Source: an uncultured Verrucomicrobiota bacterium (lineage in GTDB: Bacteria > Verrucomicrobiota > Verrucomicrobiia > Palsa-1439 > CAZOTB01). Taken from it: a stretch of 64,000 bases of DNA. The stretch is from the NCBI GenBank assembly GCA_964582645.1, contig CAZOTB010000006.1, forward strand, positions 1,972-65,971. Reading direction: 5' to 3'. Shown in pieces: positions 25,283-47,370 of this stretch. Within the stretch, counting starts at the first letter, position 1. Each line of letters begins with the position of its first letter. The position numbers and the translations under genes are program-made. A model generated the notes under the pieces. It was not told the origin of the DNA, did no database searches, and saw only the letters and a program-made list of their open reading frames with translations.

Positions 25283-26224
25283 CTACCCGAGGCGTGCCCT
25301 CTGTCGCAGGTAGGTTTGCAACAACTCCGCAAACGGCGTGGAAGTACGGGCGAGACAATATCCAATGCGGTTGGTGTGGCATGCGTTCTCGAGTTCGTGC
25401 ATGTACTCGCCCATCAACTGCCGGTAACGCTTGCGCACGTGACGCGGGTCGAGCTTGAGTTGCTCGAAGGTTTCCATGTCCTGAAAGATGGCTCGTCGGT
25501 CAAAGGTGAAATCAATCTCGGCATCGTCGAGCACGTGGAAGACGATGATGTCGTGCCGCAGATGCTGGAAATGTTTCAAGCCCTGGAGGATCTTCTGCGC
25601 ATCGTCGAGCAGGTCGCTGATGATGATGATCAACCCTCGGCGTTTGATGTTCGCGGCGAGCGCGTGCAGCACGGCGCCGGCATCGGTCTCGCCTCCCGGC
25701 TGGGCGTTGGCCAGCATCTCCAGGATCTTCTTCTTTTGGTTGGGCGTTGCCCGAGGGGGAAGGCTCCGGCGCAATTCCGTGTCGAACATGACCAAACCCG
25801 TGGCGTCCTGCTGCCGAAGAAGCAACTGCGTCAGACACGCCGCCAGGCACGAGCCGTAATGCAGCTTGGTGAGCGTGCCGCTGGTGAATCCCATCGAACC
25901 GCTGGTGTCGAGCAGGATGGTCGAGCGAAGATTGGTCTCAGCTTCGTACTGTTTGACGTAGTAGCGGTCGGTCTTGGCGAACACCTTCCAGTCAATGTGC
26001 CGAAGTTCGTCGCCCGGGGAGTACTCGCGGTGTTCGCTGAACTCGATGCTGAACCCGTGAAACGGGCTTTTGTGCATCCCGCTGATGAAACCCTCGACGA
26101 CGCGGCGCGCGAGCAGTTTGAGATCGCCGAGGCCGGTGACGATACGCGGGTCGGCAAGGTGCGGGGGGAGTTCGGAGGATGGCAGGCCTGTCGAGGATAG
26201 ACGATAGAGGATAGAGGATTGCAT
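25283..26224 (-). CDS. DUF58 family protein (vWA-like partner of MoxR)
   Basis: DUF58-like conserved core (FHGFSIEFSEHREYSPGDELRHIDWKVFAKTDRYYVKQYE) downstream of MoxR. The first 15 codons are encoded by the heptamer repeat. Confidence 0.85.
   Translation of the reverse strand: MQSSILYRLSSTGLPSSELPPHLADPRIVTGLGDLKLLARRVVEGFISGMHKSPFHGFSIEFSEHREYSPGDELRHIDWKVFAKTDRYYVKQYEAETNLRSTILLDTSGSMGFTSGTLTKLHYGSCLAACLTQLLLRQQDATGLVMFDTELRRSLPPRATPNQKKKILEMLANAQPGGETDAGAVLHALAANIKRRGLIIIISDLLDDAQKILQGLKHFQHLRHDIIVFHVLDDAEIDFTFDRRAIFQDMETFEQLKLDPRHVRKRYRQLMGEYMHELENACHTNRIGYCLARTSTPFAELLQTYLRQRARLG
26193..26218. repeat. GGATAGA-type heptamer tandem repeat (gaggatagacgatagaggatagagga), left partner of an inverted pair
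   Basis: Reverse complement of 26637..26662 with one mismatch. Confidence 0.85.
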
Positions 26225-26230
26225 TGCGGG

Positions 26231-26617
26231 CTAGCGAGAGGCGGTCCGACAAAAGTCGTCTGCACGCTCGATCATTCGATTCAGCATTGCGCCGACGTGT
26301 TGCCATCGGTCGTCCATTTCCCGGTGCTGCGCCAGGGTCAGGTAACCGCAGTCCACGGCGTGATCAAGCCAAGCCTGTGTTTCCATTGCTTCACCCAGAG
26401 CATCGTCAATCTTGCTGATAAAGGACGCCGGATACCGTCGGCGCGCCCAAGCTTCCGCGATCATCGCATTCACCGCGCGGGAGGAACGCCGTATCTGGTC
26501 GGTGAGTGAGTACTTCTCTTCGGGCGGAAATCCGTTTGTGATCAAGAATACCTTCTTTGCTTCTGCACGGGCGAGCTTGTAAACCTCCAAGTCCCGAAAA
26601 CTCCGAATAGCCGGCAT
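26231..26617 (-). CDS. Four-helix-bundle protein (23S rRNA intervening-sequence protein family, PF05635/TIGR02436-like)
   Basis: FRDLEVYKLARAEAKKVFLITNGFPPEEKYSLTDQIRRSSRAVNAMIAEAW matches the family signature. Strong RBS ggaaggag. Inserted between MoxR and DUF58. Confidence 0.85.
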   Translation of the reverse strand: MPAIRSFRDLEVYKLARAEAKKVFLITNGFPPEEKYSLTDQIRRSSRAVNAMIAEAWARRRYPASFISKIDDALGEAMETQAWLDHAVDCGYLTLAQHREMDDRWQHVGAMLNRMIERADDFCRTASR

Positions 26618-26636
26618 GAGTTGCTCCTTCCTGCGA

Positions 26637-26662
26637 TCCTCTATCCTCTATCCTCTATCCTC
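26637..26662. repeat. CCTCTAT heptamer tandem repeat (tcctctatcctctatcctctatcctc), right partner of the inverted pair
   Basis: Its reverse complement equals the 26193..26218 repeat with one mismatch. It lies in the 5' UTR of the four-helix-bundle gene. Confidence 0.85.
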
Positions 26663-27674
26663 GAGCTTTTGCGTAATCCGCTTCCGTGGGTTCGGGGACG
26701 TTCTGGAGCAACTGCTCGATGATGTTCACCGAAGAAATCCCTTTCGCTTCCGCAGCGAAACTCGGCAGGATGCGGTGACGCAATACCGGCTTGGCGACGG
26801 CGCGGATGTCTTCGCAGGAGACATTATAGTGGCCGTGCAGCGCGGCGTGAGCCTTCGCGCCGAGCACCAGGTACTGCACGGCGCGCGGGCCGGCGCCCCA
26901 ATCAATCAGTTGCTTCGCAAAATCAGCCGAGTCAGTTTCCTTGGGGCGTGTGGCGCGGACGAGGTTCACGGCGTAGCCGGCCACGTGCGGCGTGATCGGG
27001 ATCTCGCGGACGAGGCGCTGGAAGTTGATGATGTCCGCGCCGCTGAAAACTGCCTCGAGCGCGGGCTTCTCCATCCCGGTTGTTCGCAGAGCGATCTGCA
27101 GCTCTTCTTCCTTCGTGGGATACGTGATCGCCACTTTGAACATGAACCGGTCGAGTTGCGCCTCGGGCAACGGATATGTTCCTTCCTGCTCGATCGGGTT
27201 CTGCGTCGCGAGCACGAAGAATGGTTCGTCCAGTTTGTAGTCGCCGCCGCCGATGGTGATCTTGTGTTCCTGCATCGCTTCGAGCAAGGCAGCCTGCGTC
27301 TTGGGCGGGGTGCGGTTGATTTCGTCGGCGAGGATGATGTTGGCGAAAATCGGCCCGTGAATGAACCGCACGCTGCGTTTGCCGGTGGTCATGTCTTCCT
27401 CCATCACGTCCGTACCGAGAATGTCCGACGGCATCAGGTCGGGCGTGAACTGGATGCGCTTGAACTTGAGGTGCAGTAGCCGGGCGAGCGTCGAGATCAT
27501 CAACGTCTTCGCCAGCCCGGGCACGCCTTCGAGCAGGCAGTGTCCCCCGCAAAGCACGGTGGTGAGCAGTTCATCCACCACATGCGTCTGGCCGATGATG
27601 ACCTTGGACAATTCGGCCTGGATTTTGTCGCGGCCATCGCGAAGCAGTTCGATCGAGTCGGTTGTTTGTGTCAT
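26655..27674 (-). CDS. MoxR-family AAA+ ATPase
   Basis: Walker A GVPGLAKT, Walker B LADEINR and a MoxR-like C-terminus, 339 aa. Confidence 0.95.
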   Translation of the reverse strand: MTQTTDSIELLRDGRDKIQAELSKVIIGQTHVVDELLTTVLCGGHCLLEGVPGLAKTLMISTLARLLHLKFKRIQFTPDLMPSDILGTDVMEEDMTTGKRSVRFIHGPIFANIILADEINRTPPKTQAALLEAMQEHKITIGGGDYKLDEPFFVLATQNPIEQEGTYPLPEAQLDRFMFKVAITYPTKEEELQIALRTTGMEKPALEAVFSGADIINFQRLVREIPITPHVAGYAVNLVRATRPKETDSADFAKQLIDWGAGPRAVQYLVLGAKAHAALHGHYNVSCEDIRAVAKPVLRHRILPSFAAEAKGISSVNIIEQLLQNVPEPTEADYAKARG

Positions 27675-27890
27675 GATTTCAAGATTCTCCTATGGGACAA
27701 ACGCGGCGAGTTAAACATGGTGACGCAGAGAATGCCAAGCTTGAACTCCCTCGTCACCGAAACTTTTTTTCCTTCTATTTCGTGACACGATTTTCTGTTT
27801 GCCGTTTCGCAAAGGCCTTAGCCTGCGTCAAATCCAGAAGCGGGTCGTCAAGGCTATTTTCGTTTGTTTTCCTCAGCAAAAAGAAAGATT

Positions 27891-27917
27891 TTGACATGGG
27901 GGGGGGGCACCTATGGT
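27891..27917 (+). promoter_or_regulatory. Sigma70-like promoter candidate with a G10 homopolymer in the spacer (TTGACA - t G10 cacc - TATGGT)
   Basis: -35 hexamer at 27891-27896, -10 at 27912-27917, 15-nt spacer containing the G10 tract 27898-27907. It lies about 60 bp upstream of the lipoprotein start in an AT-rich intergenic region. Confidence 0.35.
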
Positions 27918-27976
27918 AGAGCCCACGACAGTTCGGAAAAGCGATTGTGAAACGACAAGGACAAGGCGCCGTCGGG

Positions 27977-29656
27977 ATGAGAGCGGTAATTTCAGTTCTG
28001 CTCGCGAGCGTGCTTCTCGTGGCGATCAGTGCATGCACCACGAGCAAGCAAGCCAAGCGTGAGAAGCAGCCCACGACTGAAACAGTGTTCGCGCTCCCGG
28101 AAGGTTTGCACGCGGAAGCGCAGTACCGGCCGGGAGTGGACTCCTCGAAATACCCACTGATCGAAGTCTATCTGCACAATCAAACGAGCCAGCCGGTGGA
28201 ATGGAAGCGTGCCTCTCTGAACGGGAACCAATTGCAGATGCTGACGAACGGGGTCGTGTGGTTCCAGTTCTATCCGACGGAGAAGGCCAATCCCGGTGAG
28301 ACGGTTCTCCTTCAAGTCAATCTGGTGGCGAATCCCCGGAACGAACAGACGGTTCGCTGTGAGACACAGGATGGGCGAATCATCGAAGTCAAACTGCCAC
28401 CCTTCTCAATACCTGCGGTGAAGATGGACGCGGTTACGTTCAGTTGGGACTTCCGTCAGATGTTCGTCGCGTATTCTCCGGGGAGCTACTTCGACTGCTC
28501 TCAGTTGGTGCCCTCGCGTGTTCTCGTGAATGGCGTGGATGCAACCGCAACTTCGGAACTCCTTTCCCCGCCCACTCTGAAAGAGCCTGCCTTTCTCCGA
28601 GTGAAGCTGCCGGAGCCGACCGAGCAAGGCCGCCCTATGTACGTGCGACTGGAGTTGAGGAATGGGATCGTGCGCCACTGTTTGGTTCGAGCTTGGAAGG
28701 GGTTTTTCCTCGACGCGTTCGCGGTGGACGAAAAGAATGCCAAGCTTCGCAAAGCTCTCGGGCTCGATCATCGCCCATTCGGCCGCCACTGCGGTGGCGA
28801 TCCAGCGTGCAATGATCTCGCGCTGGGCAGAAAGTACGGGGCATCCATGGATTCAGTCTTGGAAGAAAGAAAGGCTTCGTGGAAAGAAAAGGATAATCGC
28901 CTCAGCTACGTCTCCCTCTGTACAGCGGCCACGCCAAACGCAGCCTATTCCATCTATGGGCAGTGCATGGACGCGGCCCAAGCCAACCCTTATCGTCTGC
29001 ATTGGTCGCAAGAGGAAAAGTTTGTTGAAACGGAGGAGCGATACCTTCGCTGGTGCCGGCAGGCTGCTTCCCCTCGCCCATGGTTCTGGTTTCCAGAAAC
29101 CTTTGAAGTGCACGGTCGCATTCTGGAAGCCGAGGAGTTGCGCCTGCTGGCGTGCGCAGCGGTCGGCCAAGGGGTAAAAGGCATCAATTATTTCTGCCAT
29201 TCCTATGCTGGACCCCCTCCAGTCCATGGCTTCGATAAGAGTCCGAGGCTGCTTGCCGAAGTTAGAACTCTCAACCGTATGTTCAAAAAATACGAGCACA
29301 TCTTTTCGACCGCCATTCCAATTTCAGACGAAAGTTCTACCGATCAAGCGGATAAGATGGCTGTCAAGACACTCTGGTGCGGAGACCCATCTGGAGTCTT
29401 GGTCGTAATTCGCAACATGGACTATTCGACGGACCGCACTCCCAACGAGTACGGCTCCCATGCCCGATTCCATTGGAAGCCTAATAAAGAGCCGGCAAAA
29501 ATCAGTATTGGTAAGCCCATCTGGATGCCGCTGTGCAAGCATGGCTATGCAACTGATCTGCTAAGTGGAAGACAGGTTCATTACACCGTGAAGGATGCCG
29601 CGATATGGTTGGACATTCAACTGGACCTAGCGAGTCTCATTTTCATCCCGAGCTAA
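27977..29656 (+). CDS. Lipoprotein, function unknown (about 560 aa)
   Basis: MRAVISVLLASVLLVAISAC lipobox signal peptide with AAGGA upstream of ATG 27977. The track starts at an upstream GTG (27947). GC is lower than the flanks. Confidence 0.75.
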   Translation: MRAVISVLLASVLLVAISACTTSKQAKREKQPTTETVFALPEGLHAEAQYRPGVDSSKYPLIEVYLHNQTSQPVEWKRASLNGNQLQMLTNGVVWFQFYPTEKANPGETVLLQVNLVANPRNEQTVRCETQDGRIIEVKLPPFSIPAVKMDAVTFSWDFRQMFVAYSPGSYFDCSQLVPSRVLVNGVDATATSELLSPPTLKEPAFLRVKLPEPTEQGRPMYVRLELRNGIVRHCLVRAWKGFFLDAFAVDEKNAKLRKALGLDHRPFGRHCGGDPACNDLALGRKYGASMDSVLEERKASWKEKDNRLSYVSLCTAATPNAAYSIYGQCMDAAQANPYRLHWSQEEKFVETEERYLRWCRQAASPRPWFWFPETFEVHGRILEAEELRLLACAAVGQGVKGINYFCHSYAGPPPVHGFDKSPRLLAEVRTLNRMFKKYEHIFSTAIPISDESSTDQADKMAVKTLWCGDPSGVLVVIRNMDYSTDRTPNEYGSHARFHWKPNKEPAKISIGKPIWMPLCKHGYATDLLSGRQVHYTVKDAAIWLDIQLDLASLIFIPS

Positions 29657-29663
29657 AGGAGGA

Positions 29664-31478
29664 ATGCTGATGACAGCGATGACGAGAAACTTGAGCATTA
29701 AGTTGCGACACTATGGATTTTTGTTGAGTCTTGTGCTCGTCCAACATTGCTCTGCGCAGACTCCCGACGTGAGCCCGGACATCTCCATCTCTGTCGGCGG
29801 CGTTGCGCGAAGCCAACTTTGTGTGGGCGAACAAGCCACGTTCAGCGCCGAGAATCAGTGCACTGCTGATCCCGATGGCCCAATCAACTATTCTTGGAGT
29901 GGCGCAGTGTCGGGGACAAATCAAACCGTTTACGGATCTTTTACAACGACAGGGAACCGGACGGCTACAGTGAATGTCCATTACAATACAGCCGAGGGCG
30001 GCGTGTACGATGGTTCCACCAATTCACAGTTTACCGTTAAGACAGTATCTTCAATCACCTATGCGAAGAGCGCTGTTTGCCTCGGACAACAAGAACCTTT
30101 CCAGGTGGCGACCGATCCTGCAAATTGCTATGAAGGGATAACGATCACCGTTCCTGATGGCGAGCTCATATCCTACAGTACAAGTACGGGAATCGCCCAA
30201 GTAAAGTTGAACGTTCTTTCCACCGACAATAATGACAAGAAAACCGTCACGGCGAAGTGTGGGGATCCGTCCTGTTCAACCTGCACAGGCCAGGCAAGTA
30301 CTCAAGTTGTCGTGGCTAAAGTGGCCTCTATCACACGGTCGCCATCGGATGGTCCGACTACTGTTTGTAAGGATGAATTTCAGCAGTTTCAGGTGGAAAC
30401 CGAGCCAACCGGACATTACGATAAACCCATTGTTGTTTCCGCATTCGCGTCAGTTAATTATGATACGAATTCAGGGATTGCAACGGTGCACTTTACGAAT
30501 GCATCTCAGACCGCCGTTAATATTTGGGCGAGTTGCGGTCCTGACTCAAAAAACATCGAAACGACAGTGGTAGATGTCGGACCCATTTACGCGACATGCA
30601 CAAATAGAGTTGGAGCCGATGGTGGTCAGATAGGCTTTATGGTGACCCCAACGCCCTCAAATAGGCAGATCGAATGGCGCTACGAAGGAAGCTCTCAAGT
30701 GTGGACCGGTACTACTTTCACTGTTACAGCCCCCTCGGGAAATGGTTTCTTCACAGTGACAGCAAGCGACAAAGACTTGCCGACGTGCTCCGAGACTTTC
30801 GAGGTCGAGGTCGTGGGACATTGTGGTGCGAACTATCCGTGGGAAAATTTCGCCTACGATTCGACCGAAGAAGGAAGGCCGGCCAATTGCGGCGGAGACC
30901 TAGCTTTGTTTGAGCCGCCTCCATTTGCGGTTGCGATCACGGGCAATTACACTGCCTGCCATGGAGTGATCAGTAACACCACTGCATGGTTTCCCCGCAT
31001 AGTCGCACTCGGTTTCACCTATTACAAGGATGTGTGTTGCGGCAGTAGGACCGCTATTACAAACGCGACCATGGTCACGAGCAACGACTTCTGCAATGGC
31101 ATCTTGGCTGAACTTGAACCCCCTGGAGCGTATACAAATTACTGCGCGCCGACGTGCCTCGAAGACTACGTCAGCGTGGGCAACGATGCCTACTGGGCAA
31201 TCTGTACCAACCAGTGGGCGGTGGGAGAAGCTATAGTGGAATCCAAGACGAAGTCATTCGTCTGCATCCAGCGCGACGCCGTCGATGAGGCAGAACGTGA
31301 CCTGGAGGACGATGTCAACAGCGCATTACAGAGTGTCTACAACAACATTATCGCTCAATGGAATAGTCAGTTTGCTACGATTGAGGAAGCCGCCTACGAC
31401 GCTGAAGAGGCCTGCTTGCAGGCACTATCAAGCGAGATCGAACAAAAGGCCTATATTAATGGTTGGACGTGCCCTTGA
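29664..31478 (+). CDS. Secreted Cys-rich protein with internal Ig-like repeats and a distinct C-terminal Cys-rich domain ending ...WTCP
   Basis: Signal peptide present. About 85-aa internal repeats. GC about 47-50%. The C-terminal about 100 aa are homologous to the fragment at 34141..34671. Confidence 0.75.
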   Translation: MLMTAMTRNLSIKLRHYGFLLSLVLVQHCSAQTPDVSPDISISVGGVARSQLCVGEQATFSAENQCTADPDGPINYSWSGAVSGTNQTVYGSFTTTGNRTATVNVHYNTAEGGVYDGSTNSQFTVKTVSSITYAKSAVCLGQQEPFQVATDPANCYEGITITVPDGELISYSTSTGIAQVKLNVLSTDNNDKKTVTAKCGDPSCSTCTGQASTQVVVAKVASITRSPSDGPTTVCKDEFQQFQVETEPTGHYDKPIVVSAFASVNYDTNSGIATVHFTNASQTAVNIWASCGPDSKNIETTVVDVGPIYATCTNRVGADGGQIGFMVTPTPSNRQIEWRYEGSSQVWTGTTFTVTAPSGNGFFTVTASDKDLPTCSETFEVEVVGHCGANYPWENFAYDSTEEGRPANCGGDLALFEPPPFAVAITGNYTACHGVISNTTAWFPRIVALGFTYYKDVCCGSRTAITNATMVTSNDFCNGILAELEPPGAYTNYCAPTCLEDYVSVGNDAYWAICTNQWAVGEAIVESKTKSFVCIQRDAVDEAERDLEDDVNSALQSVYNNIIAQWNSQFATIEEAAYDAEEACLQALSSEIEQKAYINGWTCP

Positions 31479-31500
31479 TAACCGTGAAGAGGAGAAGAAT

Positions 31501-32313
31501 ATGAGCACAAACAGTATGCTAGACAGCGCCAACGGTCAGAGGCTAGTTGCGAGTTTAGTTGCGTGTTTCAGCCTTCTGGGATTGGGAGCCGGGGATTTAT
31601 CCGCCCAATCCCACGGGGGAATGAACAAGTCAACTCCTGAGAAGCAGTTGCTTTCAATGGGATTCGGAACATCCGCAGAAGACCTGCGTAACGCCCTGGG
31701 CAATTCCAACTTGCTGGCCAGGGTCTTCGCTACCCAATTTATCAAAGAGCAAAATGATAAAGCCTTCACCTCTGACATAAAGAAGCTCTTGGACGACAAG
31801 GAGTCGTGCGTTCGTGTTGAAGCCGCAATGGTATTGGCTCCATGGGGAGAAGCAAAGGCTTCGGAGGTCCTTCGTTCGGAGTTGCAGACTTCCGAAGATG
31901 TGAATGTAAGATTGCGTGCAGCGGGGGCACTGGCTGATGTTGGTGATAGCAGAGGGTTCGGCTTGGTCAAAGCCACCTTGCTTGATGAACGCTCTCCCGT
32001 GCAAACGTACGCCGCAACCATGATACAGAAGTTCGCCCGCTTCCGCGGCCAAGGCATAGACAGCCTCGCCGTTCAACTGCAAGCAATGGACATCGCTGTT
32101 AAGAAGGCCGAGAAGAAAGAAAGTGAGGGTGCGGTCAGACAAGCAGCATGGCTGTTCAGAGTCTTGGCGCATGACTTGGAGCAATCCGAGGACAGCCGGG
32201 CGGTGGCCAAGTTGCATGAGGCTTCCAAGTCGAAGGATCCCAAGATTCGTTTTGCCGCTGAACAAAGCCTGAAAAGAAGCGAGCAGAAGCAGGCTAGCGG
32301 GAAACAGCATTGA
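31501..32313 (+). CDS. Secreted HEAT/PBS-lyase-like repeat protein
   Basis: RBS GGAGAAG followed by ATG 31501. Signal peptide LVASLVACFSLLGLGAGDLSAQS. HEAT-like repeats. Paralog of 34727..35530. Confidence 0.75.
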   Translation: MSTNSMLDSANGQRLVASLVACFSLLGLGAGDLSAQSHGGMNKSTPEKQLLSMGFGTSAEDLRNALGNSNLLARVFATQFIKEQNDKAFTSDIKKLLDDKESCVRVEAAMVLAPWGEAKASEVLRSELQTSEDVNVRLRAAGALADVGDSRGFGLVKATLLDERSPVQTYAATMIQKFARFRGQGIDSLAVQLQAMDIAVKKAEKKESEGAVRQAAWLFRVLAHDLEQSEDSRAVAKLHEASKSKDPKIRFAAEQSLKRSEQKQASGKQH

Positions 32314-32363
32314 GATGGCTTAAAGCCTCAAAGCATTGAACCCAATGCGAGACGCGTCTCGGC

Positions 32364-32870
32364 TTGAACCGCTCGGGGCGCGGTTATACCATCGCGGGCC
32401 GGATGAGATGCTTGCGGATGAAGCAGTTTATAGCGTCGGCATGGACGAGGTCGAAATGCCTGACCAGCAAACTTAGCGAAATCCTCAAACACAACAATGC
32501 CTCTGGGTGGGCAACTTTTCTCGTGTCACTCGTGATGGTATACGCCCTCCTCCAGACCAACAGGGCCATCAAGCAGACCGCTGAGTCTATCGAACTCCAG
32601 AGGTCTGCTAACTCTAACGCTGCCGTACAACTGCGAATCGAGCAGGATACGAGGTTATACCCGGAACTAGAATGCCGGTGGGACACCATCAGCGGCCTCG
32701 TCCTCCGCAACGTGGGTACCGCGCCTGCGACGAACATCAATCTTCGCACTGCCGTTGTCTGCGTCACGTCCAATGTTTCATACGACTTCCGAGCGCGGCG
32801 GGGTCACATCTTCAATTTTCACAAAGGAATTTTCCGTCCCGCCAATCCTCAGTCGGTTTGTGACAATTGA
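32364..32870 (+). CDS. hypothetical protein with one TM helix
   Basis: ORF with a hydrophobic segment WATFLVSLVMVYALLQT. Low-GC island context. Confidence 0.4.
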   Translation: MNRSGRGYTIAGRMRCLRMKQFIASAWTRSKCLTSKLSEILKHNNASGWATFLVSLVMVYALLQTNRAIKQTAESIELQRSANSNAAVQLRIEQDTRLYPELECRWDTISGLVLRNVGTAPATNINLRTAVVCVTSNVSYDFRARRGHIFNFHKGIFRPANPQSVCDN

Positions 32871-32989
32871 AGATCAGACCCCGGCTGGCCCTGCCGAGCC
32901 GTGTGGCCTTTCGAAGATGCATTCGAAGATGCACTGGGAGAGGATCACGAAGGTTTCACAGCTTGCTACGTTTCAAGCGCTGATTCGTG

Positions 32990-34134
32990 GTATTCTCCGC
33001 GCGGTCATAGATTGAGCTTCTGAGAGGCTGGCGTGGACAGCGCAAATCCAGTACAATCAGATCGAGTTGGTCGCTTGACGATCATGCTTCAACTGGAATT
33101 CCGTTTCGAGGACATCGAGTTCTTCGAACGCCAGCGGTTCGAGCATCCTCACCCCTGGCTGCAACGCAAGTTTGAAGCCCTCTTCCTCAAAAGCCACCAC
33201 CTGCCGCATCAGACCATCTGCGAACTGTGCGGGATTTGTGGCAACACCTTGCGCCGCTACCTCATCGAGTACCAGCAGGGGGGCCTCGCCCACGTGCAGG
33301 AACTACCCTTTCACCGTCCCTCCAGCGTCTTGGAATCGCATCGCGGCTTCCTGCGAGAGGAGTTCACGCTGCGACCGGTGGCTACCGTCCGAGAGGCGGC
33401 GGCGCGCATCGCTGAACTCACCGGCGTGCGCCTGTGCCTGACCCAGACCCGGGATTGGTTGCATCGGCTCGGTCTGAAGTGGCGCAAGGTGGCACCGATC
33501 CCGGCCAAGGCCGATCCGGCCGCCCAAGCCGAGCTCAAGGCTCAGAAGCTCGAACCGCGTCTGCAGGAGGCGCGGGCGGGCCAACGGGCGGTCTATTTCG
33601 TGGATGCGGCTCACTTTGTCTATGGGGCATTTCTGGGGTGTTTATGGTCGCTGACGCGGGTGTTTGTGCGCACGCCGTCCGGTCGGCAGCGCTTCAACGT
33701 GCTGGGGGCGCTCGATGCGCTGACGCACGAACTGATCACGGTGACCAACGAGACGTATATCAACGCGCTGAGTGTGTGTCAGTTGCTGCGACAACTGGCG
33801 GCGCAAGCCGGGGGCAAGGCGGTGACCGTGGTGCTGGACAACGCGCGCTACCAGCACTGTGCGCTGGTGGAGACGGAGGCGGCGGCGTTGGGGATCGAGT
33901 TGCTGTTTTTGCCGCCGTATTCGCCGAACCTGAACTTGATCGAGCGGTTGTGGAAGTTTGTGAAGAAGCGCTGTTTGAACTCGAGGTATCATGCAGATTT
34001 TGGGGTGTTTCGGGGTGCGATCCAGGAATGTTTGGCGAAGATTGGAACCCGCCACAAAGCGGAGCTCGATACGCTACTGACCCTCAATTTCCAGACGTTT
34101 GAAAAAGCTCAATCTATGACCGCGTGAAGAATAC
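32990..34134 (+). mobile_element. IS630-family insertion sequence (about 1.15 kb) with 29-bp imperfect terminal inverted repeats
   Basis: TIRs gtattctccgcgcggtcatagattgagc (32990..33017) and gctcaatctatgaccgcgtgaagaatac (34107..34134) share 26/29 identity. A single transposase ORF lies inside, and the element's GC is higher than the surrounding island. Confidence 0.8.
33033..34127 (+). CDS. IS630/Tc1-mariner family transposase (DDE_3)
   Basis: Hallmark LLFLPPYSPNLNLIERLW motif. An N-terminal HTH region is present. The start may be the internal Met at 33084. Confidence 0.85.
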   Translation: MDSANPVQSDRVGRLTIMLQLEFRFEDIEFFERQRFEHPHPWLQRKFEALFLKSHHLPHQTICELCGICGNTLRRYLIEYQQGGLAHVQELPFHRPSSVLESHRGFLREEFTLRPVATVREAAARIAELTGVRLCLTQTRDWLHRLGLKWRKVAPIPAKADPAAQAELKAQKLEPRLQEARAGQRAVYFVDAAHFVYGAFLGCLWSLTRVFVRTPSGRQRFNVLGALDALTHELITVTNETYINALSVCQLLRQLAAQAGGKAVTVVLDNARYQHCALVETEAAALGIELLFLPPYSPNLNLIERLWKFVKKRCLNSRYHADFGVFRGAIQECLAKIGTRHKAELDTLLTLNFQTFEKAQSMTA

Positions 34135-34140
34135 ATCCGA

Positions 34141-34671
34141 GTGACAGGCATAAAAATCAAAGTTTTTATCAATGTTTGTCGGCCACCGCCGACGGCTGGT
34201 GTACCTTTCATAGAGGGAGCCGGCGATCCACAGATTAACTCAGGTAACGTTTGCTCTGTTCTTTGCAGCTTTACCCCTAATCAGACTGGTTGCGCACCGT
34301 ATTCGAACTTTGCTTCTGAGGACTGTCTCAAAGCTCATGAAGAACAACATTTTCAGGATTTTGACGATGAATTTGACTTTATCTGGGCGTATTATGAAGA
34401 TGAGATCGAAGACCTCCACGTCCCTTTTGCCTGTACAGACATGGATGACCCTGCGGAGGCTGTTGAAGCCATCTTTTGGTCCGAAGACGGCAACGGCATA
34501 GGGGATCAACTATCCGAAGCGTACCTCGCTGCTGCTGACATTTTCAATGATGCCACTTGGCGGGCTCAATCTGAAGTCAACGCAATCGCAGCAGAAAACA
34601 CTTGTTTATCAGGACAGCGGGCGCAAATCCAGCAGCGATTTGGCCAACCCAGTTGTCCGAGCTGCCCGTGA
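34141..34671 (+). CDS. Orphan C-terminal module homologous to the C-terminus of 29664..31478 (GTG-initiated at the IS630 right end, no signal peptide)
   Basis: Shared pattern CAP..., F[VA]C..D, A.W..Q....AA..E..CL......Q......CP, ending SCPSCP versus WTCP. The reading frame is closed by a stop 24 nt upstream inside the IS TIR. Confidence 0.45.
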   Translation: MTGIKIKVFINVCRPPPTAGVPFIEGAGDPQINSGNVCSVLCSFTPNQTGCAPYSNFASEDCLKAHEEQHFQDFDDEFDFIWAYYEDEIEDLHVPFACTDMDDPAEAVEAIFWSEDGNGIGDQLSEAYLAAADIFNDATWRAQSEVNAIAAENTCLSGQRAQIQQRFGQPSCPSCP

Positions 34672-34726
34672 AATAATGCTACAATACAATCTGCAAAGAA
34701 TGAGCGGAACAGAAGGGAGAATACAA

Positions 34727-35530
34727 ATGGAACTTAGTAGAGGACGAACAGTAACTATTTCTATTTCGTTGGTTACTTTGTGTCTCGCAATTAACGCAGT
34801 GAGTTTGCATGCCCAAACACCGGCAGGCAGGGGTGACGACATGCCCGTACCAACCTCAGAGGAGCAACTCAAGGCGAAGGGATTCGACACGACGGAGGAA
34901 GGACTTCGAAGTGCCCTGAGCACTTCGAATACGTTGACCCGCGTTTACGCGGTTCGAGTTATCAAAGAGAAGAACATCAAATCACTCATACCGGATCTGG
35001 AACTGCTGCTCGACGACAGTAAATCGAGGACTAGGGCCGAGGCCGCTATGGCGCTCGCCAAGTTGGGGAGCCCTAGAGGGCTCCCGTCCCTAAAAATGGA
35101 AATGAAAACATCCAAGGAACAGGGCGTCAAGCTTGATGTTGCAGGAGCACTCGCTGAGTTAGGCGACAGCAGTGGCTATTCTGTTGTCAAAGCCTGCCTG
35201 TTGGATAGTAAGAACCTTGGGTTGCAGCACATGGCCTCGCACCAAGTACACAAATTCTCTGGTCTCAAGGGGGGAGCAGACGCACAATCGCTTTACCTGC
35301 TAGGCATGGATGCAGCGGGTCGCCAGGCGAAAAGCGAGAACGAGAAAGAGGCCAAATCAGCCCGTGTGTTGTTTAGACTGATGGTGAGCGGGCTTGGGAT
35401 GGTTGGTGATGAAGGGGCAATGCCAAAACTACAAGAAATGACCCAATCGGATGATCCTGAACTGCGTGAGGCAGCCGAAAGAGCTTTGAAAACCATCGAG
35501 AAGCGAGTCGAAAGTAAAACGAAGAAATGA
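34727..35530 (+). CDS. Secreted HEAT/PBS-lyase-like repeat protein, paralog of 31501..32313
   Basis: RBS AAGGGAGAA followed by ATG 34727. Signal peptide TVTISISLVTLCLAINAVSLHAQ. About 35% identity to the first HEAT gene, visible by eye. Confidence 0.75.
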   Translation: MELSRGRTVTISISLVTLCLAINAVSLHAQTPAGRGDDMPVPTSEEQLKAKGFDTTEEGLRSALSTSNTLTRVYAVRVIKEKNIKSLIPDLELLLDDSKSRTRAEAAMALAKLGSPRGLPSLKMEMKTSKEQGVKLDVAGALAELGDSSGYSVVKACLLDSKNLGLQHMASHQVHKFSGLKGGADAQSLYLLGMDAAGRQAKSENEKEAKSARVLFRLMVSGLGMVGDEGAMPKLQEMTQSDDPELREAAERALKTIEKRVESKTKK

Positions 35531-35612
35531 GTTTAGGATGGGTTGTAATTATTGAAAATCTGATCGACTGTCATGGACTCATCCCAATCCATTCCACACA
35601 TTCGATTGTTTC

Positions 35613-35993
35613 TCACAGTTGATCCTTCTTTTCTGAAACTTGAGCAGACTCTTTCACGGAAGCTTGTTCATCGGCGATACTTGGGCGTTTGTTTATCTTA
35701 GTCTGGCATTCTTCCGTCACGGTCTGGCGTGTTTCTGTCGCAGTCTGGCGTTCTTCCGTGAGAAATTGGCGTTTGTCTTTCATACTTTGGTCAGCTTTCG
35801 ACACACTCTGGCCGTTGTTCTTAACCCAGATGTCTTTGTCTTTACCGCTTTTGTGCGCGGGTGCGACGGATTGACCGTGGCGAGGCCGGCGTAGCCGCGG
35901 TTCTGGGCAGCGCGCGAGTTTACAGATTTGTCTTCCTGGAAGGGGAAATTCCCCTTCACCTTTATCCTCTCCCGCGCTGGGGAGAGGAAACAA
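35613..35993 (-). CDS. Possible small heptad-repeat protein (RQTATETRQTVTEECQTK...) spanning the 21-bp array; coding status uncertain
   Basis: Longest ORF across the array. The alternative plus-strand ORF 35640..35894 is also open. Confidence 0.25.
   Translation of the reverse strand: MFPLPSAGEDKGEGEFPLPGRQICKLARCPEPRLRRPRHGQSVAPAHKSGKDKDIWVKNNGQSVSKADQSMKDKRQFLTEERQTATETRQTVTEECQTKINKRPSIADEQASVKESAQVSEKKDQL
35680..35826. repeat. 21-bp degenerate tandem repeat array (about 7 units, consensus GTCTGGCGTTCTTCCGTCACG)
   Basis: Units at 35680, 35701, 35722, 35743, 35764, 35785 and 35806. It would encode 7-aa periodic peptides on either strand. Confidence 0.8.
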
Positions 35994-36269
35994 AGCTCTT
36001 CGTGTGACAACCGCTCAGTCTGCGGGTTCGATTTCGACCACCCGCACCTCCTTCGCGAGATGGTCTCTCCAAAATGTTATCAGGAATTCGTGGTGCAATT
36101 TGACATCCAATTCGCGTCCCGTGTCGTCCTTCTCCGTGAAATCACCGGCCACAGCCTGGCTCGCTTTGAGTGCATCGAGGAATTGAAAAAAGCTTGCGTC
36201 GTTTCACGCCTCGTATCGAGAGCAGGAACTGCAGCGCGTCCTCGTCAAGCACAAGCTTCCAAGCCCGAC

Positions 36270-36482
36270 TCATAGGCCCGCAGCCCGCAATTCCCTGTCG
36301 AGCCGCTTCGCAGTATCAAGGGTTACCTTCCCACCGGCATCCATTCGACGCATGCGCGCGCCGAGCTTGGCCTGGTGGGTCGGATCATCCATTCTTGCGA
36401 GATGCTTGAGGTACGCGCTCGCAAAAAGCCGATTCTCACCGCTCATCTTGTCAATGGACTTTCTGATTTGCGTCGTGCTCAT
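36270..36482 (-). CDS. hypothetical small protein (70 aa)
   Basis: Short ORF in the AT-richer tail of the island. Followed by another sub-60-aa ORF at about 36018-36131 with only a GTG start. Confidence 0.3.
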   Translation of the reverse strand: MSTTQIRKSIDKMSGENRLFASAYLKHLARMDDPTHQAKLGARMRRMDAGGKVTLDTAKRLDRELRAAGL

Positions 36483-36532
36483 TGCGGCTCATCATAGGCT
36501 ATCAGGGAACAACTGCAAGCGATTCATTACAA

Positions 36533-39355
36533 CTATGGCGCCAGAAACACATCCGCCGCGTCCACGTAAATCCGCGTGCCGGCAGGGATGACTTTCCGCC
36601 CCTCCTTTGCCGAGCCGAGGAAGTGCATATATCCCTTGGGTTCGCCCGTGGTGGCCGGACCGGTGCGCCAACTGAACGTCCGCCACGGTTCGACGTTGTT
36701 GATCGGTTCAAGCCAGCCCCATTGCTGCAAGGTGACGGCAGGAGCGCCCACGATCGAGTACACACCATCGCTTTGCGTGGTCGAACGGCGCAGCTCCGAC
36801 CAGCGAAAATCCGCGTCGGTGCAGAGGATGTTACACCGCGCGAACAGCCGGTCGCCAATGCCGGTGGGAAATCGGATTGTGACGTACACGGGCGGGGCCA
36901 CCGCCTGGGGGAGTTCGATCTGCACACATTTGCGTCCGTCCGTTCCGAATCCATCCACGATGGAAAACTTCGCAGCCTGTGCCTTCGGCGGTTCGGCGGG
37001 CGTCGAGAACTCGACGTGCGCGATGGCGTTGCTCACCACCTCGGTTTTCTCGAATGATGGATCCGGCAACAGCGGCGTCGGCCAGTATCGTTTCGCCGCG
37101 TCGGCGAACAGCGCTTTGCTCTGGATCGCGTCCTTGACGAGCGCCTGGAGGGCGGTCGCTTCCTTGACGGCCTCCTCCTCCTTGGTTGTCTTAAGGACCG
37201 CCTCGACGAGCCCTGCGGCCTTCTCGTACTCCTTCTTGAAATAGGCCGCGCGAATCTCAAGCAAGGTCGAACGCAGCGCATACCGTCCGGTCGGCTCGGC
37301 CTTGGTCAAGGTCTTGAGTTCGGCGAGCGCAGCGTCGGTGTCCTGGGTTGCGAGCAGCAACTGCGCGTTCAGATACACCACGTCGGGATTCAATCGGGCA
37401 TCGGGAAACTCGAACACGAGGCTGTCGAAACTGGTGCGAACCTTGTCGGCGAGCGCGGTGATCGTGTCCCGGCTTCCGATTTCCGAGTAGCCGCCGGGAT
37501 CGAACACCATCTTCGTCAACTCGCCCACGCCCTGCCGCAAGGTGCTGTAGAGCGACCCGCGACGGATGGCCTGTTCCCGTTCGGTGCGTCCGTCCCCCAC
37601 CTCGACCAGTTTGGCTTCGTCGTAGGCCTTGCGCGCAGAAGCGAGGTCGCCTTGCTGCAGGAACGCATCGCCGAGCGCGATTTGCGCCGAGCGTTCCAGT
37701 TTGGGATCGTCGCCACCCTTGTCCTTGATAATCTGGTTGAACGCCTCGATGGACTGCGGATACCGAGCCGCGCGCAACTGCAGCTTCCCGATTTCCAGAC
37801 GAACTCTCGTCCGCAACGTCCGCTGCTTCTCGAGCTTGGCGTCCATCTGTTGCAGTTCCGCCACCGCGGCGTCCCACTGCCCGAGGTCGGCTTTTGCGTC
37901 GGCGATCTTTTGTCGCGCGGAAAGCTCCACCGTCGTCGGAACCGTGCCCGACTTCGTGAGGTACAATGGCGCGAGCTTCAGGATCGTCTCGGCGCGCAGC
38001 TTGCGGTCAGAGATTTGTTCGGCGATGGCGATCAACGTCCACAACGTCCCCGGCTCGTACTGGCCGAGCATCGGCGTGACGAGGCGAATCATCTCCTGCG
38101 CGGCAACGGGGCTGACCGAGTTGGACATCGGGATTTTCTGCTTTGGCAACGCCGAGAAACTGGTGGCGAGCACCACCTTTTGAAACTTCGATGCGCCCGC
38201 GGTGAGCGTGACGGTGTAGCGGCCCGGCTTGACGTACACGTGCGCCGGGTTCGGTTCGGCGCTCGTCGTTCCGTCGCCGAAGTCCCACTGATACGTCACG
38301 CCCTCCGTTTTTCCGACCGTGCGGTTGTGAAACCGCACCATCACGACCGGCTGGTCCGCGCCGAGAAGCATGTCGGTTTGGAAATCGTTGAAGAATGCCG
38401 CGGTCGCCTGATCGCACAGCCTGTAGTCGCGCACCATGCTGCCGACGACCGATGGATGCCACACCGGCGCGACCGGCTTCGCGACGAGGTTTGCATAGTG
38501 GTACTCGGGCCATGGCACCAGCCACGAAATGCCCGTCACGCCGAACCCGGACACGCGCGCCTGGAGAATTTCCAGCGCCTGCGTGCCGCGCGGTAGCAGC
38601 ACGTCGGCGATGCTTGGCGTCTTGACGGTCACGTCGGCAGGAGTCGAGGCCACCGGCTGCCCGTTCACCGCCAGAAAACCATGATCTTTCGCAAAGAGGC
38701 CAACCTTGTACACGTCTTCACGCGGGGTCTGCCACGCACCCCATGTGCGCGACATGAACTGGTTCTCGGACTCGTCGAACGGGTTGCAGCGGGATTGGGT
38801 GTCGTCAAGGACCGCCACACCCATGCTGGTCGCGGCGGCGCTCCACAGTTTCCGCATCGAGTCCCACGTGCTCGAATCGCCATCGGGGCGTGCACGCGTC
38901 TCGTAGAAGAGGCCGCGACCGAAGTTGGTCGGTGCCACTCCGCTGGTGAGCGATCCGCCGAAGAACAGATGCGCCGTGTCCTCTCCCGGCGGGACAGAGA
39001 ACAAAACCATGCTCGCGTTGAGCGGGTGGGTGTAGATAATTTCGATGGGGCGCGCGTTGCCCTTGGAGTCCGTCACGCGGACGTTCTGCGAACCCGCAGC
39101 GAGGATGCCACCGGAAAAGAAGCGAACGGCACAGACCGCAACGTCGTTGGTGGGACGCTCGCCGGACATCTCCACCCGGTAGCGAGCGACCGCGCCGTCC
39201 GGCCAGGGGACGTCGCCCTGCGCGAGGATGGAGGATAGAGGATAGAGGATGGCCGGGATCAGCCAACGCGCATTCTTGATGGCGGATTCCATTCTCCATC
39301 TTCCATTCTCCATCCTCCCGCGCTTCACAGCACACCTCCCGGGGGCGAGGTGCAC
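36533..39355 (-). CDS. Secreted PKD-domain and TPR-repeat protein (940 aa)
   Basis: PKD signature WDFGDGTTSAEPNPAHVYVKPGRYTVTL, followed by TPR-like helical repeats and an N-terminal signal-like leader. Confidence 0.85.
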   Translation of the reverse strand: MHLAPGRCAVKRGRMENGRWRMESAIKNARWLIPAILYPLSSILAQGDVPWPDGAVARYRVEMSGERPTNDVAVCAVRFFSGGILAAGSQNVRVTDSKGNARPIEIIYTHPLNASMVLFSVPPGEDTAHLFFGGSLTSGVAPTNFGRGLFYETRARPDGDSSTWDSMRKLWSAAATSMGVAVLDDTQSRCNPFDESENQFMSRTWGAWQTPREDVYKVGLFAKDHGFLAVNGQPVASTPADVTVKTPSIADVLLPRGTQALEILQARVSGFGVTGISWLVPWPEYHYANLVAKPVAPVWHPSVVGSMVRDYRLCDQATAAFFNDFQTDMLLGADQPVVMVRFHNRTVGKTEGVTYQWDFGDGTTSAEPNPAHVYVKPGRYTVTLTAGASKFQKVVLATSFSALPKQKIPMSNSVSPVAAQEMIRLVTPMLGQYEPGTLWTLIAIAEQISDRKLRAETILKLAPLYLTKSGTVPTTVELSARQKIADAKADLGQWDAAVAELQQMDAKLEKQRTLRTRVRLEIGKLQLRAARYPQSIEAFNQIIKDKGGDDPKLERSAQIALGDAFLQQGDLASARKAYDEAKLVEVGDGRTEREQAIRRGSLYSTLRQGVGELTKMVFDPGGYSEIGSRDTITALADKVRTSFDSLVFEFPDARLNPDVVYLNAQLLLATQDTDAALAELKTLTKAEPTGRYALRSTLLEIRAAYFKKEYEKAAGLVEAVLKTTKEEEAVKEATALQALVKDAIQSKALFADAAKRYWPTPLLPDPSFEKTEVVSNAIAHVEFSTPAEPPKAQAAKFSIVDGFGTDGRKCVQIELPQAVAPPVYVTIRFPTGIGDRLFARCNILCTDADFRWSELRRSTTQSDGVYSIVGAPAVTLQQWGWLEPINNVEPWRTFSWRTGPATTGEPKGYMHFLGSAKEGRKVIPAGTRIYVDAADVFLAP

Positions 39356-40548
39356 GCGACATAAAGCACGCCGTTCTTTGCGACCACCATGTCGTTGATC
39401 ATGGTCGCCTTCAGGTCAAACCGCTGCGGCTCTCCCTTGGGGAGGCCGTCTGCATCGAGGGAGTAAATCGAGAGAAGCGACCGCGAGTTGGCGATGCAGA
39501 GACGGTCGTGGACATCGTCCACGCACGCGAGGCGAACCGGATCCACCTGTACGAACTGAGGCACGCTCGTGAGCCGACCCTCGCGCGTGAGTTGATAAAT
39601 CCCCATCTCCGAGCCGCGGGCATTCGGGACGTACAGCTTCCGATGGCGGACGCTGACCGGCGGGGCAGAATTGTACTTGCTCTGCGTCGCGATCGCCTGT
39701 GTGAAGGAGAGGGCACGGCCATCTTCGGTGAACGTAAACACGATCTTGGTGGTGCCGACGTCGCTTCCATAACAACGCCGCCATTCCGGCACGCGCCTCC
39801 ATTCCGAGAGTCTGATCGGGGTCTTCAACTGGAAATCGGATGGCTGCCGCCCCGATCTCTTCGGCCTGGGCGCGCCGCGGCGTGGAGGGGGCGCCGGTTG
39901 AGTCTTCAAGGTCTGAACCAACTCCTCGTCCGCAACCGGCCAGAGGCTCACCCACGCGTGGCTTTCGCCGAAATACAGGAATCGTCCCAGCGGGTCCACG
40001 AACAAGGAGCGAATCGCCAAGGTGCGTCGCGTTGCCCGGAGTCGCTGCAAGGGTTCATGGGGCATCCCTTCCTCGTCCAAGGCCAGCGCGGCAACGAAGG
40101 CAACGTTGGTATCCTGTCGAAAGGTGGCGAGCTTATCGGGCGTGGCATTGACGTAGAGCTGCGCCTGGGTCGGGTCCACCGCGATGTCGGTGATCGCGTA
40201 CTGGGAACCCGGCAAGGGAACTCCCTCGACGATCCCATCGGCGTGTTGCCGGCGGCTGTCGGAAATCAGTCTGCCTTCGCCGTCGAGTTGGAACGTCGTC
40301 AACGCCATGCCGTTCGTCCTACCGGCAAGACCGACGTAGAGCAGCGGTTTTGTCGGATGCAACTCCACTGAACGCGCGCCGAGGACGGGGACCGGGATGA
40401 CGTGGGGAGGGAGTTCCTGCGCAAGACACCGGGTGAGAATGGAGGAAAGAAGATAGAGGATGGCAAAGCAGCTTGCGCGGCGAACCAGCGCCCTCTTCCC
40501 TCGTCCATTTTCCATCTTGAATTCGTTCATGGCGCGGGAATGACACAC
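39325..40548 (-). CDS. Secreted lactonase-like 7-bladed beta-propeller family protein
   Basis: Signal-like leader ...CFAILYLLSSILTRCLAQ and beta-propeller-like repeats. Overlaps the downstream gene by 31 bp. Confidence 0.7.
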   Translation of the reverse strand: MCHSRAMNEFKMENGRGKRALVRRASCFAILYLLSSILTRCLAQELPPHVIPVPVLGARSVELHPTKPLLYVGLAGRTNGMALTTFQLDGEGRLISDSRRQHADGIVEGVPLPGSQYAITDIAVDPTQAQLYVNATPDKLATFRQDTNVAFVAALALDEEGMPHEPLQRLRATRRTLAIRSLFVDPLGRFLYFGESHAWVSLWPVADEELVQTLKTQPAPPPRRGAPRPKRSGRQPSDFQLKTPIRLSEWRRVPEWRRCYGSDVGTTKIVFTFTEDGRALSFTQAIATQSKYNSAPPVSVRHRKLYVPNARGSEMGIYQLTREGRLTSVPQFVQVDPVRLACVDDVHDRLCIANSRSLLSIYSLDADGLPKGEPQRFDLKATMINDMVVAKNGVLYVACTSPPGGVL

Positions 40549-45422: not shown

Positions 45423-46346
45423 TTACGCGTCGCCGCCGGCGTGTTTCACCAGCGCCGCGATGGCGATGGAATGGATCTTCGTCTGCGCCGTCTCGGCCCG
45501 GGACAGCAGTATGATCGGCACCTTCGCGCCGACGATGATTCCGCCGCTCTCGCCTTTTGCAAAGTAGATGACGGCACGATAGAAAATGTTGGCCGCCTCG
45601 ATGTCGGGATGGAGAAATATGTCGGCGCTGGCCACGACCGGGCTCTTGATTCCCTTTCGGTCGGCGGCGAATTCACTCAGCGGCACGTCGAGCGCCAGCG
45701 GGCCCTCGATGTATGCGCCGGTAATCTGACCGCGCCGGTTCATCATCGTCAACGCGGCCGCGTCCACCGTCGCGGGCATGTCGGGGTTCACGAATTCGAG
45801 CGCGCACAACGGCACCAACTTCGGCTCGGCGATGCCGATGGCGTGGGCGACCTCGATGCAGTTCTTGGCGATCTCCGCCTTCTGCGCGAGCGTGGGCGCG
45901 ATGTTGATGGCGGCGTCGCTCATGATCATGAGTCGCTTGAAGCCCGGCACCTCAAAGACGACCACCTGGCAAAGGTGCCGACCCGTGCGCAGACCGGTTT
46001 CCTTGTCGAGGACGGTTTTGATCAACGTCGCCGTGCTGACTTTGCCCTTCATCAACAGATCGGCCTTGCCTTCGCGAACCAACCCGGTTGCCTTTTGCGC
46101 ACAGGCGGACGGATCGGTCTCGTGAATCAACTTCGAAGCGGGAATCTTGAGGCCCACCTTGTCGGCCAGGCTCTGGATTTTCGACTTGTCGCCGACGAAG
46201 ATGCCTTCTGCCAATCCCATCTCGCCCGCGAGCTTGATGCTTTCGATCACATCGGGGTCCTGTCCCACGGCGACGGCGATGCGCTGTTTGCCGAGTTGCC
46301 GGGCAGAATCTACCAGTTCCTTCAGCGACTTGAACGGCTGTTTCAT
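45423..46346 (-). CDS. ptb: Phosphate butyryltransferase / phosphate acetyltransferase family (PTA_PTB)
   Basis: 307 aa with characteristic DPDVIESIKLAGEMGLAEGIFVGD and SRAETAQTKIHSIAIAAL regions. No adjacent buk gene. Confidence 0.8.
   Translation of the reverse strand: MKQPFKSLKELVDSARQLGKQRIAVAVGQDPDVIESIKLAGEMGLAEGIFVGDKSKIQSLADKVGLKIPASKLIHETDPSACAQKATGLVREGKADLLMKGKVSTATLIKTVLDKETGLRTGRHLCQVVVFEVPGFKRLMIMSDAAINIAPTLAQKAEIAKNCIEVAHAIGIAEPKLVPLCALEFVNPDMPATVDAAALTMMNRRGQITGAYIEGPLALDVPLSEFAADRKGIKSPVVASADIFLHPDIEAANIFYRAVIYFAKGESGGIIVGAKVPIILLSRAETAQTKIHSIAIAALVKHAGGDA

Positions 46347-47296: not shown

Positions 47297-47370
<74 letters not shown>

Follow-up and report, generated by a model that had tools for sequence, protein, structure and literature searches.

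An island of about 8.8 kb with foreign base composition is present in a 64,000-nucleotide (nt) stretch of DNA (contig CAZOTB010000006.1; the whole stretch is termed the window) from an uncultured Verrucomicrobiota bacterium. It lies in the spacer between two genes of a native operon, one encoding a protein with PKD and TPR domains (PKD/TPR) and the other a MoxR AAA+ ATPase, and it carries a cassette of genes for exported proteins as well as an IS630-family insertion sequence (IS). The most probable explanation, at roughly 80%, is that an accessory segment of foreign composition was inserted into the operon spacer together with its exported cassette and was later hit by the IS630 element. The island is a small horizontally mobile accessory islet, which is ordinary as a class; its cargo is unusual. 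The evidence comes from a compositional break, an empty site in relatives, the presence of the cassette in other contexts, the anatomy of the IS, and a homologous reading frame that the IS interrupts.

Compositional break

Nucleotide positions 27675–36532 have a GC (guanine plus cytosine) content of 0.535 vs. 0.620 elsewhere in the window. Non-overlapping 1-kb intervals outside the island show a mean of 0.620 (sd 0.022, minimum 0.573, n = 54). Inside, the successive values are 0.575, 0.523, 0.506, 0.521, 0.549, 0.612, 0.488, 0.512 and 0.587; the lowest is at z = −6.1 against the outside intervals, and the interval with 0.612 is the IS630 element. The dip is sharply delimited: when the entire 64 kb is segmented blind (unsupervised) with two breakpoints, the result is 27601–36600, with the same GC values inside and outside. 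This is almost the same region as the 27700–36520 of low GC given in the original prediction, which had been made by reading the sequence.

GC at third codon positions (GC3) is 0.79 in MoxR, 0.79 in DUF58, 0.82 in the fucosidase gene, 0.81 in PKD/TPR and 0.76 in the gene next to it, all of these being flank genes. The six island open reading frames (ORFs) have values of 0.63, 0.56, 0.59, 0.65, 0.45 and 0.54 (range 0.45–0.65). Measured against the rest of the window, strand-symmetrised tetranucleotides lie at an L1 distance of 0.30–0.42 inside the island vs. 0.18 ± 0.02 outside, i.e. 6–12 standard deviations over the background, and the composition-normalised tetranucleotide correlation is 0.65–0.75 vs. 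0.875 ± 0.03. Because both GC3 and the normalised tetranucleotides deviate, the compositional difference is not merely one of amino acid (aa) content. By GC, GC3 and tetranucleotides alike, composition and codon usage across the window are clearly non-uniform.

Empty site in related contigs

MoxR homologues form six clusters at 85–92% identity, followed by a drop to 65% or less; thus the lineage is thinly sampled. Two of the related contigs, L011 and L012, are from different soil metagenomes and have a MoxR that is 88% identical in aa sequence to that of the window. Both display, in a single orientation, a gene of 391 aa, PKD/TPR (913 aa), MoxR and DUF58. From the PKD/TPR stop to the MoxR start there are 79 nt, with no gene between. 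Nucleotide identities to the window are 71% for PKD/TPR (across 2.67 kb in L011), 84% for MoxR and 78% for DUF58, and nucleotide alignment shows nothing at this locus that matches positions 27675–36532. The motif CATG(C/T)TTAACTC is common to the L011/L012 spacer and to window positions 27708–27720, approximately 35 nt upstream of the MoxR start. Judged by these alignments, the L011/L012 spacer is an empty site that lacks the island; the block is not syntenic in these relatives. The coding direction of the island is opposite to that of the flanking operon genes.

The IS630 element and the gene remnant it interrupts

An IS630 copy at 32990–34134, higher in GC than its surroundings, was part of the original prediction, and its ends, its TA dinucleotides and an NCBIfam match agree with this. 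The inverted ends are 30 nt long and 93% complementary, and TA is present inside both of them (32991–32992 and 34132–34133). The end sequence has no further occurrence in the window, where the number of chance matches expected is 0. With the NCBIfam model transpos_IS630 (NF033545, cut-off 100) the transposase reaches 192 bits, and it has the Pfam domains DDE_3 and HTH_33. A single DDE_3 transposase, N-terminal helix-turn-helix domains, 30-bp inverted repeats, TA ends and a size of 1.14 kb are features shared with the IS630/Tc1-mariner group. The element differs from known members of the IS630 family in that no transposase of the plasmid collection searched reaches 60% identity to its own (cyanobacterial elements of the ISAcma14 type come closest, with 49–53%), and one copy has been seen. 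Records of the exact transposase sequence are confined to this locus in three or four assemblies, whose contigs are continuous across it. The original prediction raised the question of identical copies elsewhere in the genome; there is no second copy in evidence.

Removal of positions 32993–34133 (the element plus one TA) yields an open frame through the junction, which aligns from approximately residue 429 with the C-terminal domain of the family of the secreted 604-aa protein encoded upstream in the island. The restored junction is FTACYVSSADSW joined to YIRVTGIKIKVF, as against YTACHGVISNTTAWFPRVTGIGFTYY in the family (in short form, FTACYVSSADSW joined to YIRVTG as against YTACHGVISNTTAWFPRVTG). 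With tblastn the restored frame gives E = 5e-9 to the homologue on contig L017, 3e-6 to that on contig L014 and 8e-5 to the 604-aa protein of the window itself. Upstream of position 32955 the remnant has no detectable similarity to the family. Restoration of the frame on excising the element and one TA confirms the TA duplication model, and thus the 176-aa ORF that follows the IS is the tail of a 5′-truncated paralogue interrupted by the element. The element has a GC of 0.60 and its transposase a GC3 of 0.76, which are host-like and unlike the island. Because of this composition and its position inside a gene remnant, the IS probably arrived after the island.

The same locus in other assemblies

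The window is the same sequence as the 238-kb contig Ga0394876_0000091 of Joint Genome Institute (JGI) metagenome 3300037465, apart from five base differences at 18343–18408, outside the island, and one inside at 34709. Island stretches in JGI 3300043177, JGI 3300043178 and Logan SRR12686701 are 100% identical to the window. The same sequence is present in four other assemblies (three identical, one with a single-base difference), so the island junctions did not arise through faulty assembly, and the possibility of a chimera was rejected. The island, including the IS, is by these comparisons fixed in the sampled population. The description of the region as still evolving is therefore borne out in one part only: decay is visible in the truncated paralogue and the IS insertion, but nothing points to change still under way, as the DNA is identical in three of the other assemblies and differs by one base in the fourth. 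That sole in-island difference, A in the window and C in the JGI 238-kb contig, is just upstream of the second of two HEAT-repeat genes (HEAT2).

Genes of the exported cassette

The three genes at the left of the island encode a 569-aa lipoprotein, the 604-aa protein and a HEAT-repeat protein (HEAT1). The prediction that the products are secreted proteins or lipoproteins fits: the translated 569-aa and 604-aa proteins and both HEAT proteins each show a lipobox or a signal peptide. There is no paralogue of the cassette elsewhere in the window.

In a structure model, the 569-aa lipoprotein is predicted to have tandem beta-sandwiches, then a glycoside-hydrolase-like (beta/alpha) barrel, then a further beta-sandwich. 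The model has a predicted local distance difference test (pLDDT) score below 50 in the central barrel region, residues 275–354. No glycoside-hydrolase family in Pfam or NCBIfam is matched, and catalytic residues are not identified. With this predicted fold in the first gene, the statement that the island has none of the glycan-utilisation character of its flanks does not hold, and the contrast had been overstated. Among 5.8 billion clusters, the lipoprotein has five homologues at 64–32% identity, one of which is from a Verrucomicrobia metagenome-assembled genome (MAG).

The 604-aa protein has a single homologue (54% identity) among the same clusters. When 1.84 billion representatives are searched exhaustively with a profile, 27 relatives appear, of which only three are full-length besides P0122, itself part of the query. 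The C-terminal domain of this family (~220 aa) has six invariant positions, four of them cysteines. Neither the protein nor the domain has a match in Pfam, NCBIfam or a PDB profile search, and an AF2 model built from a 2-sequence alignment is unusable (pLDDT 31). In five of 11 C-terminal domains the motif HExxH is present in one alignment column, with a nearly invariant Glu about 25 residues later. The carriers are P0132, P0133, P0149, P0151 and the IS-interrupted orphan of the window (AHEEQH, 34330–34350); the intact 604-aa protein does not have the motif. The motif and the Glu may represent a zincin-like signature in some of these domains, which is to be taken as a lead only.

The cassette in other contexts and its mosaic structure

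The order lipoprotein, ~600-aa protein, HEAT protein recurs on contigs L014, L015 and L019, downstream of LigD and DUF2442. The proteins there are 580, 608 and 285 aa in length and show 64%, 39% and 31% identity, respectively, to those of the window. On L019 the cassette has a GC of 0.51–0.55 vs. ~0.60 in its flanks, and there is no other similarity to the window. (L019 was the one informative locus from a metagenome locus scan with the full-length alignment; the C-terminal alignment was too divergent.) Horizontal or intragenomic mobility would be expected to leave just this picture, a cassette that keeps a lower GC of its own in differing neighbourhoods. L014, L015 and L019 are from the same three samples as L007–L009, the relative with a MoxR at 90% identity, where MoxR has other neighbours. 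On a further contig, L017, the same gene order is seen as far as its 2.3 kb extend: the final 31 lipoprotein codons (39% identity), a gene for a 598-aa protein (54%) and an incomplete HEAT gene (56%).

The 604-aa protein displays a mosaic pattern. Its identity to the L014 homologue is 49–70% over residues 1–250 and 15–33% over residues 300–600. With the L017 homologue this is reversed, i.e. 34–48% in the N-terminal half and 66–88% in the C-terminal half. The breakpoint is near residue 280–300, as seen in a comparison of few sequences. HEAT1 is 56% identical to its L017 counterpart and 31% to that of L014, so that its similarity follows the C-terminal half of the 604-aa protein (n = 3 loci). 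The similarity of the lipoprotein seems to go with the N-terminal half (64% to L014; 39% to L017, over the last 31 residues only). Within the family the C-terminal domain is found on different N-termini and the N-terminal repeats are also found without it, as P0136, P0149, P0151 and L016 show; some members consist of just the N-terminal or just the C-terminal part. In L016, a Verrucomicrobia MAG, the lipoprotein is followed by a protein that has the N-terminal repeats only, and both the C-terminal domain and the HEAT gene are absent.

Proposed order of events

The proposed process would begin with the insertion of ~8.8 kb of accessory DNA into the short spacer of the PKD/TPR-MoxR-DUF58 operon, with its genes on the opposite strand. 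The cargo would be a rare cassette of three genes that travel together and encode exported envelope proteins: a lipoprotein whose fold is putatively glycosidase-like, the Sec-secreted 604-aa protein, in which Ig-like repeats are combined with a variable, probably disulfide-rich C-terminal domain, and a secreted HEAT protein, which most likely binds that domain. A second module, consisting of a 5′-truncated C-terminal domain and its own HEAT partner, would be a leftover downstream of the cassette. After the arrival of the island, the host-like IS630 would have entered this leftover domain at a TA.

Several observations weigh against this proposal. The empty site is known from one pair of relatives, L011/L012. 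The other relatives have different genes upstream of MoxR, i.e. a 438-aa protein and GntR in L007–L009, DUF4340 in L010, and a beta-helix protein and DUF4159 in the more distant L013. The island is absent from the MoxR neighbourhood in all of these, and the neighbourhood is thus variable. With one empty-site pair and variable neighbours elsewhere, the ancestral state rests on composition and parsimony. No integrase or recombinase was found among the island proteins with Pfam and NCBIfam, no direct repeats bracket the island, and no tRNA gene is near its borders, the sole tRNA gene of the window being at 47296–47371; a mechanism of insertion therefore cannot be named. The L014 and L019 contigs are taken to be from relatives of this organism only because of shared samples and GC, and the co-variation of HEAT protein and C-terminal domain comes from three loci and one paralogue.

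The restriction of the empty site to one lineage and the variable region upstream of MoxR are also what favors the opposite history, in which the block is ancestral and the L011/L012 lineage lost it by deletion, with gene-specific constraint or relaxed selection behind its low GC. This is improbable, as it does not account for the deviation in GC3 and in composition-normalised tetranucleotides, the low GC of the cassette relative to its flanks amid unrelated neighbourhoods in other contigs, the orientation of the island genes against the operon strand, or the MoxR upstream motif kept in the short L011 spacer. A gain therefore appears the better explanation. The original prediction of a horizontally acquired accessory region is upheld by the composition, the empty site, and the occurrence of the cassette beside the unrelated genes LigD and DUF2442. 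It is very improbable that the island was carried in by the IS630, whether within a composite transposon or through IS-mediated transduction of neighbouring DNA: the element supplies the sole recognisable mobility gene of the island, but it is a single copy, mid-island and inside a gene remnant, with a host-like GC3, and its end sequence is unique in the window and not at the island borders, for which reasons a composite-transposon origin was rejected.

In its break in GC, GC3 and tetranucleotides, its presence or absence among relatives with a clean empty site, its accessory exported-protein cargo, its IS element and its signs of gene decay, the island is like known genomic islands and islets. 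It differs in being small (8.8 kb), without integrase, tRNA target or flanking direct repeats, and situated inside an operon spacer. Concerning the mobility gene that is typical of genomic islands, the IS630 transposase is present but would be a secondary arrival.

Possible roles of the cargo

As a tentative explanation, the cassette may serve in the handling of glycans at the cell surface, which would accord with the character of the flanks. The glycosidase-like lipoprotein would act with the Ig-repeat protein as a binding or scaffold protein and the HEAT protein as an accessory, and variability would represent diversification of substrate or surface and not conflict. Similar modules are found in the polysaccharide utilization loci of Bacteroidota, with a glycosidase lipoprotein and Ig-fold surface glycan-binding proteins; here, a lipoprotein with a putative glycosidase-like barrel adjoins an exported protein with multiple Ig domains in a glycosidase-rich genome region. 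Unlike those loci, the island has no SusC/SusD pair and no CAZy-family match, and nothing in them is comparable to its HEAT partner or its cysteine-rich domain. A glycan role is also weakened by the missing glycoside-hydrolase family match and catalytic residues of the lipoprotein and by the low pLDDT of its barrel, and it leaves unexplained the co-variation of the HEAT protein with the C-terminal domain and the orphan module.

The second possibility, a rather doubtful one, is that the cargo forms a Sec-exported system resembling polymorphic toxin-immunity systems, with a constant Ig-repeat carrier, an exchangeable C-terminal effector, and a periplasmic HEAT protein as the cognate inhibitor. 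The truncated C-terminal domain and HEAT2 would then be an orphan module displaced by a past recombination; toxicity and an immunity role are by analogy. In polymorphic toxins, immunity proteins with HEAT repeats (Imm-HEAT), Sec-dependent delivery and recombination with standalone cassettes have been described (Zhang et al. 2012, PMC3482391). As in CdiA-CT/CdiI, Rhs-CT/RhsI and Imm-HEAT systems, the C-terminal part and the downstream partner appear to vary jointly, the N-terminal part having another history; here this is suggested by the putative recombination breakpoint near residue 280–300 and in a HEAT partner that tracks the C-terminal half. The promoterless, truncated C-terminal fragment with a second HEAT-repeat partner gene downstream is likewise shared with those systems. 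Since the C-terminal domain and the HEAT protein appear to behave as one exchangeable module, with a truncated second module downstream, the locus resembles polymorphic toxin-immunity loci. The varied N-termini that bear the domain, the N-terminal repeats that occur without it, and the HExxH column, orphan included, are in agreement with this.

Other features do not fit a toxin-immunity system. For the C-terminal domain, searches of Pfam, NCBIfam and PDB profiles give no match to a known toxin or to any other family. There is no known toxin or trafficking domain, i.e. no RHS, filamentous-haemagglutinin, PAAR, LXG, VENN or pre-toxin domain, only a Sec signal peptide, and, unlike in known systems, the partners carry signal peptides. 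The intact 604-aa copy is without HExxH, and its AF2 model failed. The orphan begins inside the domain (~residue 429) and not at a module boundary. The cassette always begins with the glycosidase-like lipoprotein, which has no role in such a scheme, and the sample is three loci. The most specific form of this proposal appears unlikely as a whole: that the cargo represents a previously undescribed Sec-exported polymorphic effector-immunity family of an uncultured soil lineage, made up of an Ig-repeat carrier, an exchangeable, disulfide-rich effector (in some members with a zincin-like HExxH...E), a periplasmic HEAT immunity protein, a glycosidase-like lipoprotein as a conserved helper, and a displaced orphan module.

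An islet with an IS element is routine as such. In a soil bacterium that is uncultured and poorly sampled, the locus is a clean worked example of probable gene gain within an operon spacer, and a relative with the empty site is available for comparison. The cargo is more useful: the cassette of three genes for exported proteins, which have only a handful of relatives among billions, moves between genomic contexts and recombines modularly, with a partner protein tracking one module. An effector-inhibitor pair, if true, would represent a new family of bacterial conflict systems in Verrucomicrobia/Planctomycetes-like soil bacteria. A role in surface glycan handling would add an unrecognised glycosidase-like family.

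Other features of the island and its surroundings

The coordinates of all features are given in Table 1.

Table 1. Features of the island and of the genes at its borders (positions in the 64-kb window).
Feature	Position	Strand	Remarks
MoxR AAA+ ATPase, left flank, native	26655–27674	−	Pfam AAA_3, 1.9e-63; GC3 0.79
Inserted island (proposed), ~8.8 kb	27721–36532	.	From conserved MoxR-upstream motif (27708–27720) to PKD/TPR stop codon (36533)
569-aa lipoprotein	27947–29656	+	Lipobox AISAC; JGI call is 559 aa from 27977
Secreted 604-aa protein	29664–31478	+	Signal peptide; Ig/PKD-like repeats ~40–380; cysteine-rich C-terminal domain ~383–604
HEAT1, secreted HEAT-repeat protein (272–284 aa)	31459–32313	+	Pfam HEAT_2, 8.5e-12; partner of 604-aa protein
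150-aa ORF	32418–32870	+	One hydrophobic helix; homologue not found
Truncated C-terminal-domain paralogue, 5′ piece	32955–32992	+	Cut off by IS630
IS630-family element	32990–34134	+	Inverted ends 32990–33019 and 34105–34134; transposase 33084–34127 (or GTG start at 33033)
Truncated C-terminal-domain paralogue, 3′ piece	34134–34671	+	176-aa ORF, 34141–34671; AHEEQH kept
HEAT2, second secreted HEAT-repeat protein, 267 aa	34727–35530	+	39% identical to HEAT1
Small low-complexity 56-aa ORF	35613–35783	−	Overlies tandem repeat; doubtful gene
70-aa ORF (36270–36482) and frameshifted ~86-aa ORF (36015–36273)	36015–36482	−	4-nt overlap
PKD/TPR protein, right flank, native	36533–39292	−	Pfam PKD and TPR; GC3 0.81

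In the ~1 kb past HEAT2 there are only small doubtful ORFs and a weak tandem repeat. The tandem-repeat DNA of the original prediction does exist (35700–35759), but it amounts merely to 2.9 copies of a 21-nt unit with 74% matches. The pair of ORFs at 36015–36482 was considered as a decayed toxin-antitoxin module; this was dropped, the pair having no match in Pfam, NCBIfam, PDB or plasmids. Rfam shows no RNA family within the island, and promoter and terminator scans are below chance.

The operon has a further irregularity between MoxR and DUF58, where a gene for a four-helix-bundle protein of the 23S-rRNA-intervening-sequence-protein/bAvd-like type is present (26231–26617, minus strand). It is flanked by 33-nt inverted arms of GAGGATA heptamers (26191–26223 and 26632–26664). 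In L010, L011 and L007 the MoxR-DUF58 gap is 24–170 nt, without this gene. Thus positions 26177–26664 represent a second insertion, of roughly 460 nt, within the same operon.

A gene-less hairpin of ~100 nt made of GAGGATA-type heptamers is present at the 5′ end of PKD/TPR (39220–39320; DNA fold −25.7 kcal/mol, z −2.7), and a weaker copy is found 1.2 kb further on (40442–40463). The hairpin creates a false N-terminus (MENGRWRMES...) in the long form of the PKD/TPR ORF (940 aa). When this ORF was used for a contig scan, only the false N-terminus was matched, in a Gemmataceae MAG that has a similar gene-less hairpin (L002, ~9990–10110).

Elsewhere in the window there is a mild GC dip to 0.574 at 46000–48000, adjoining the only tRNA gene (tRNA-Arg CCG, minus strand). 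Excursions in AT skew at normal GC reach −0.38 around 42–43 kb and +0.30 around 51–52.5 kb (regions 42000–44500 and 50500–53000); these may represent large, compositionally biased genes on opposite strands.

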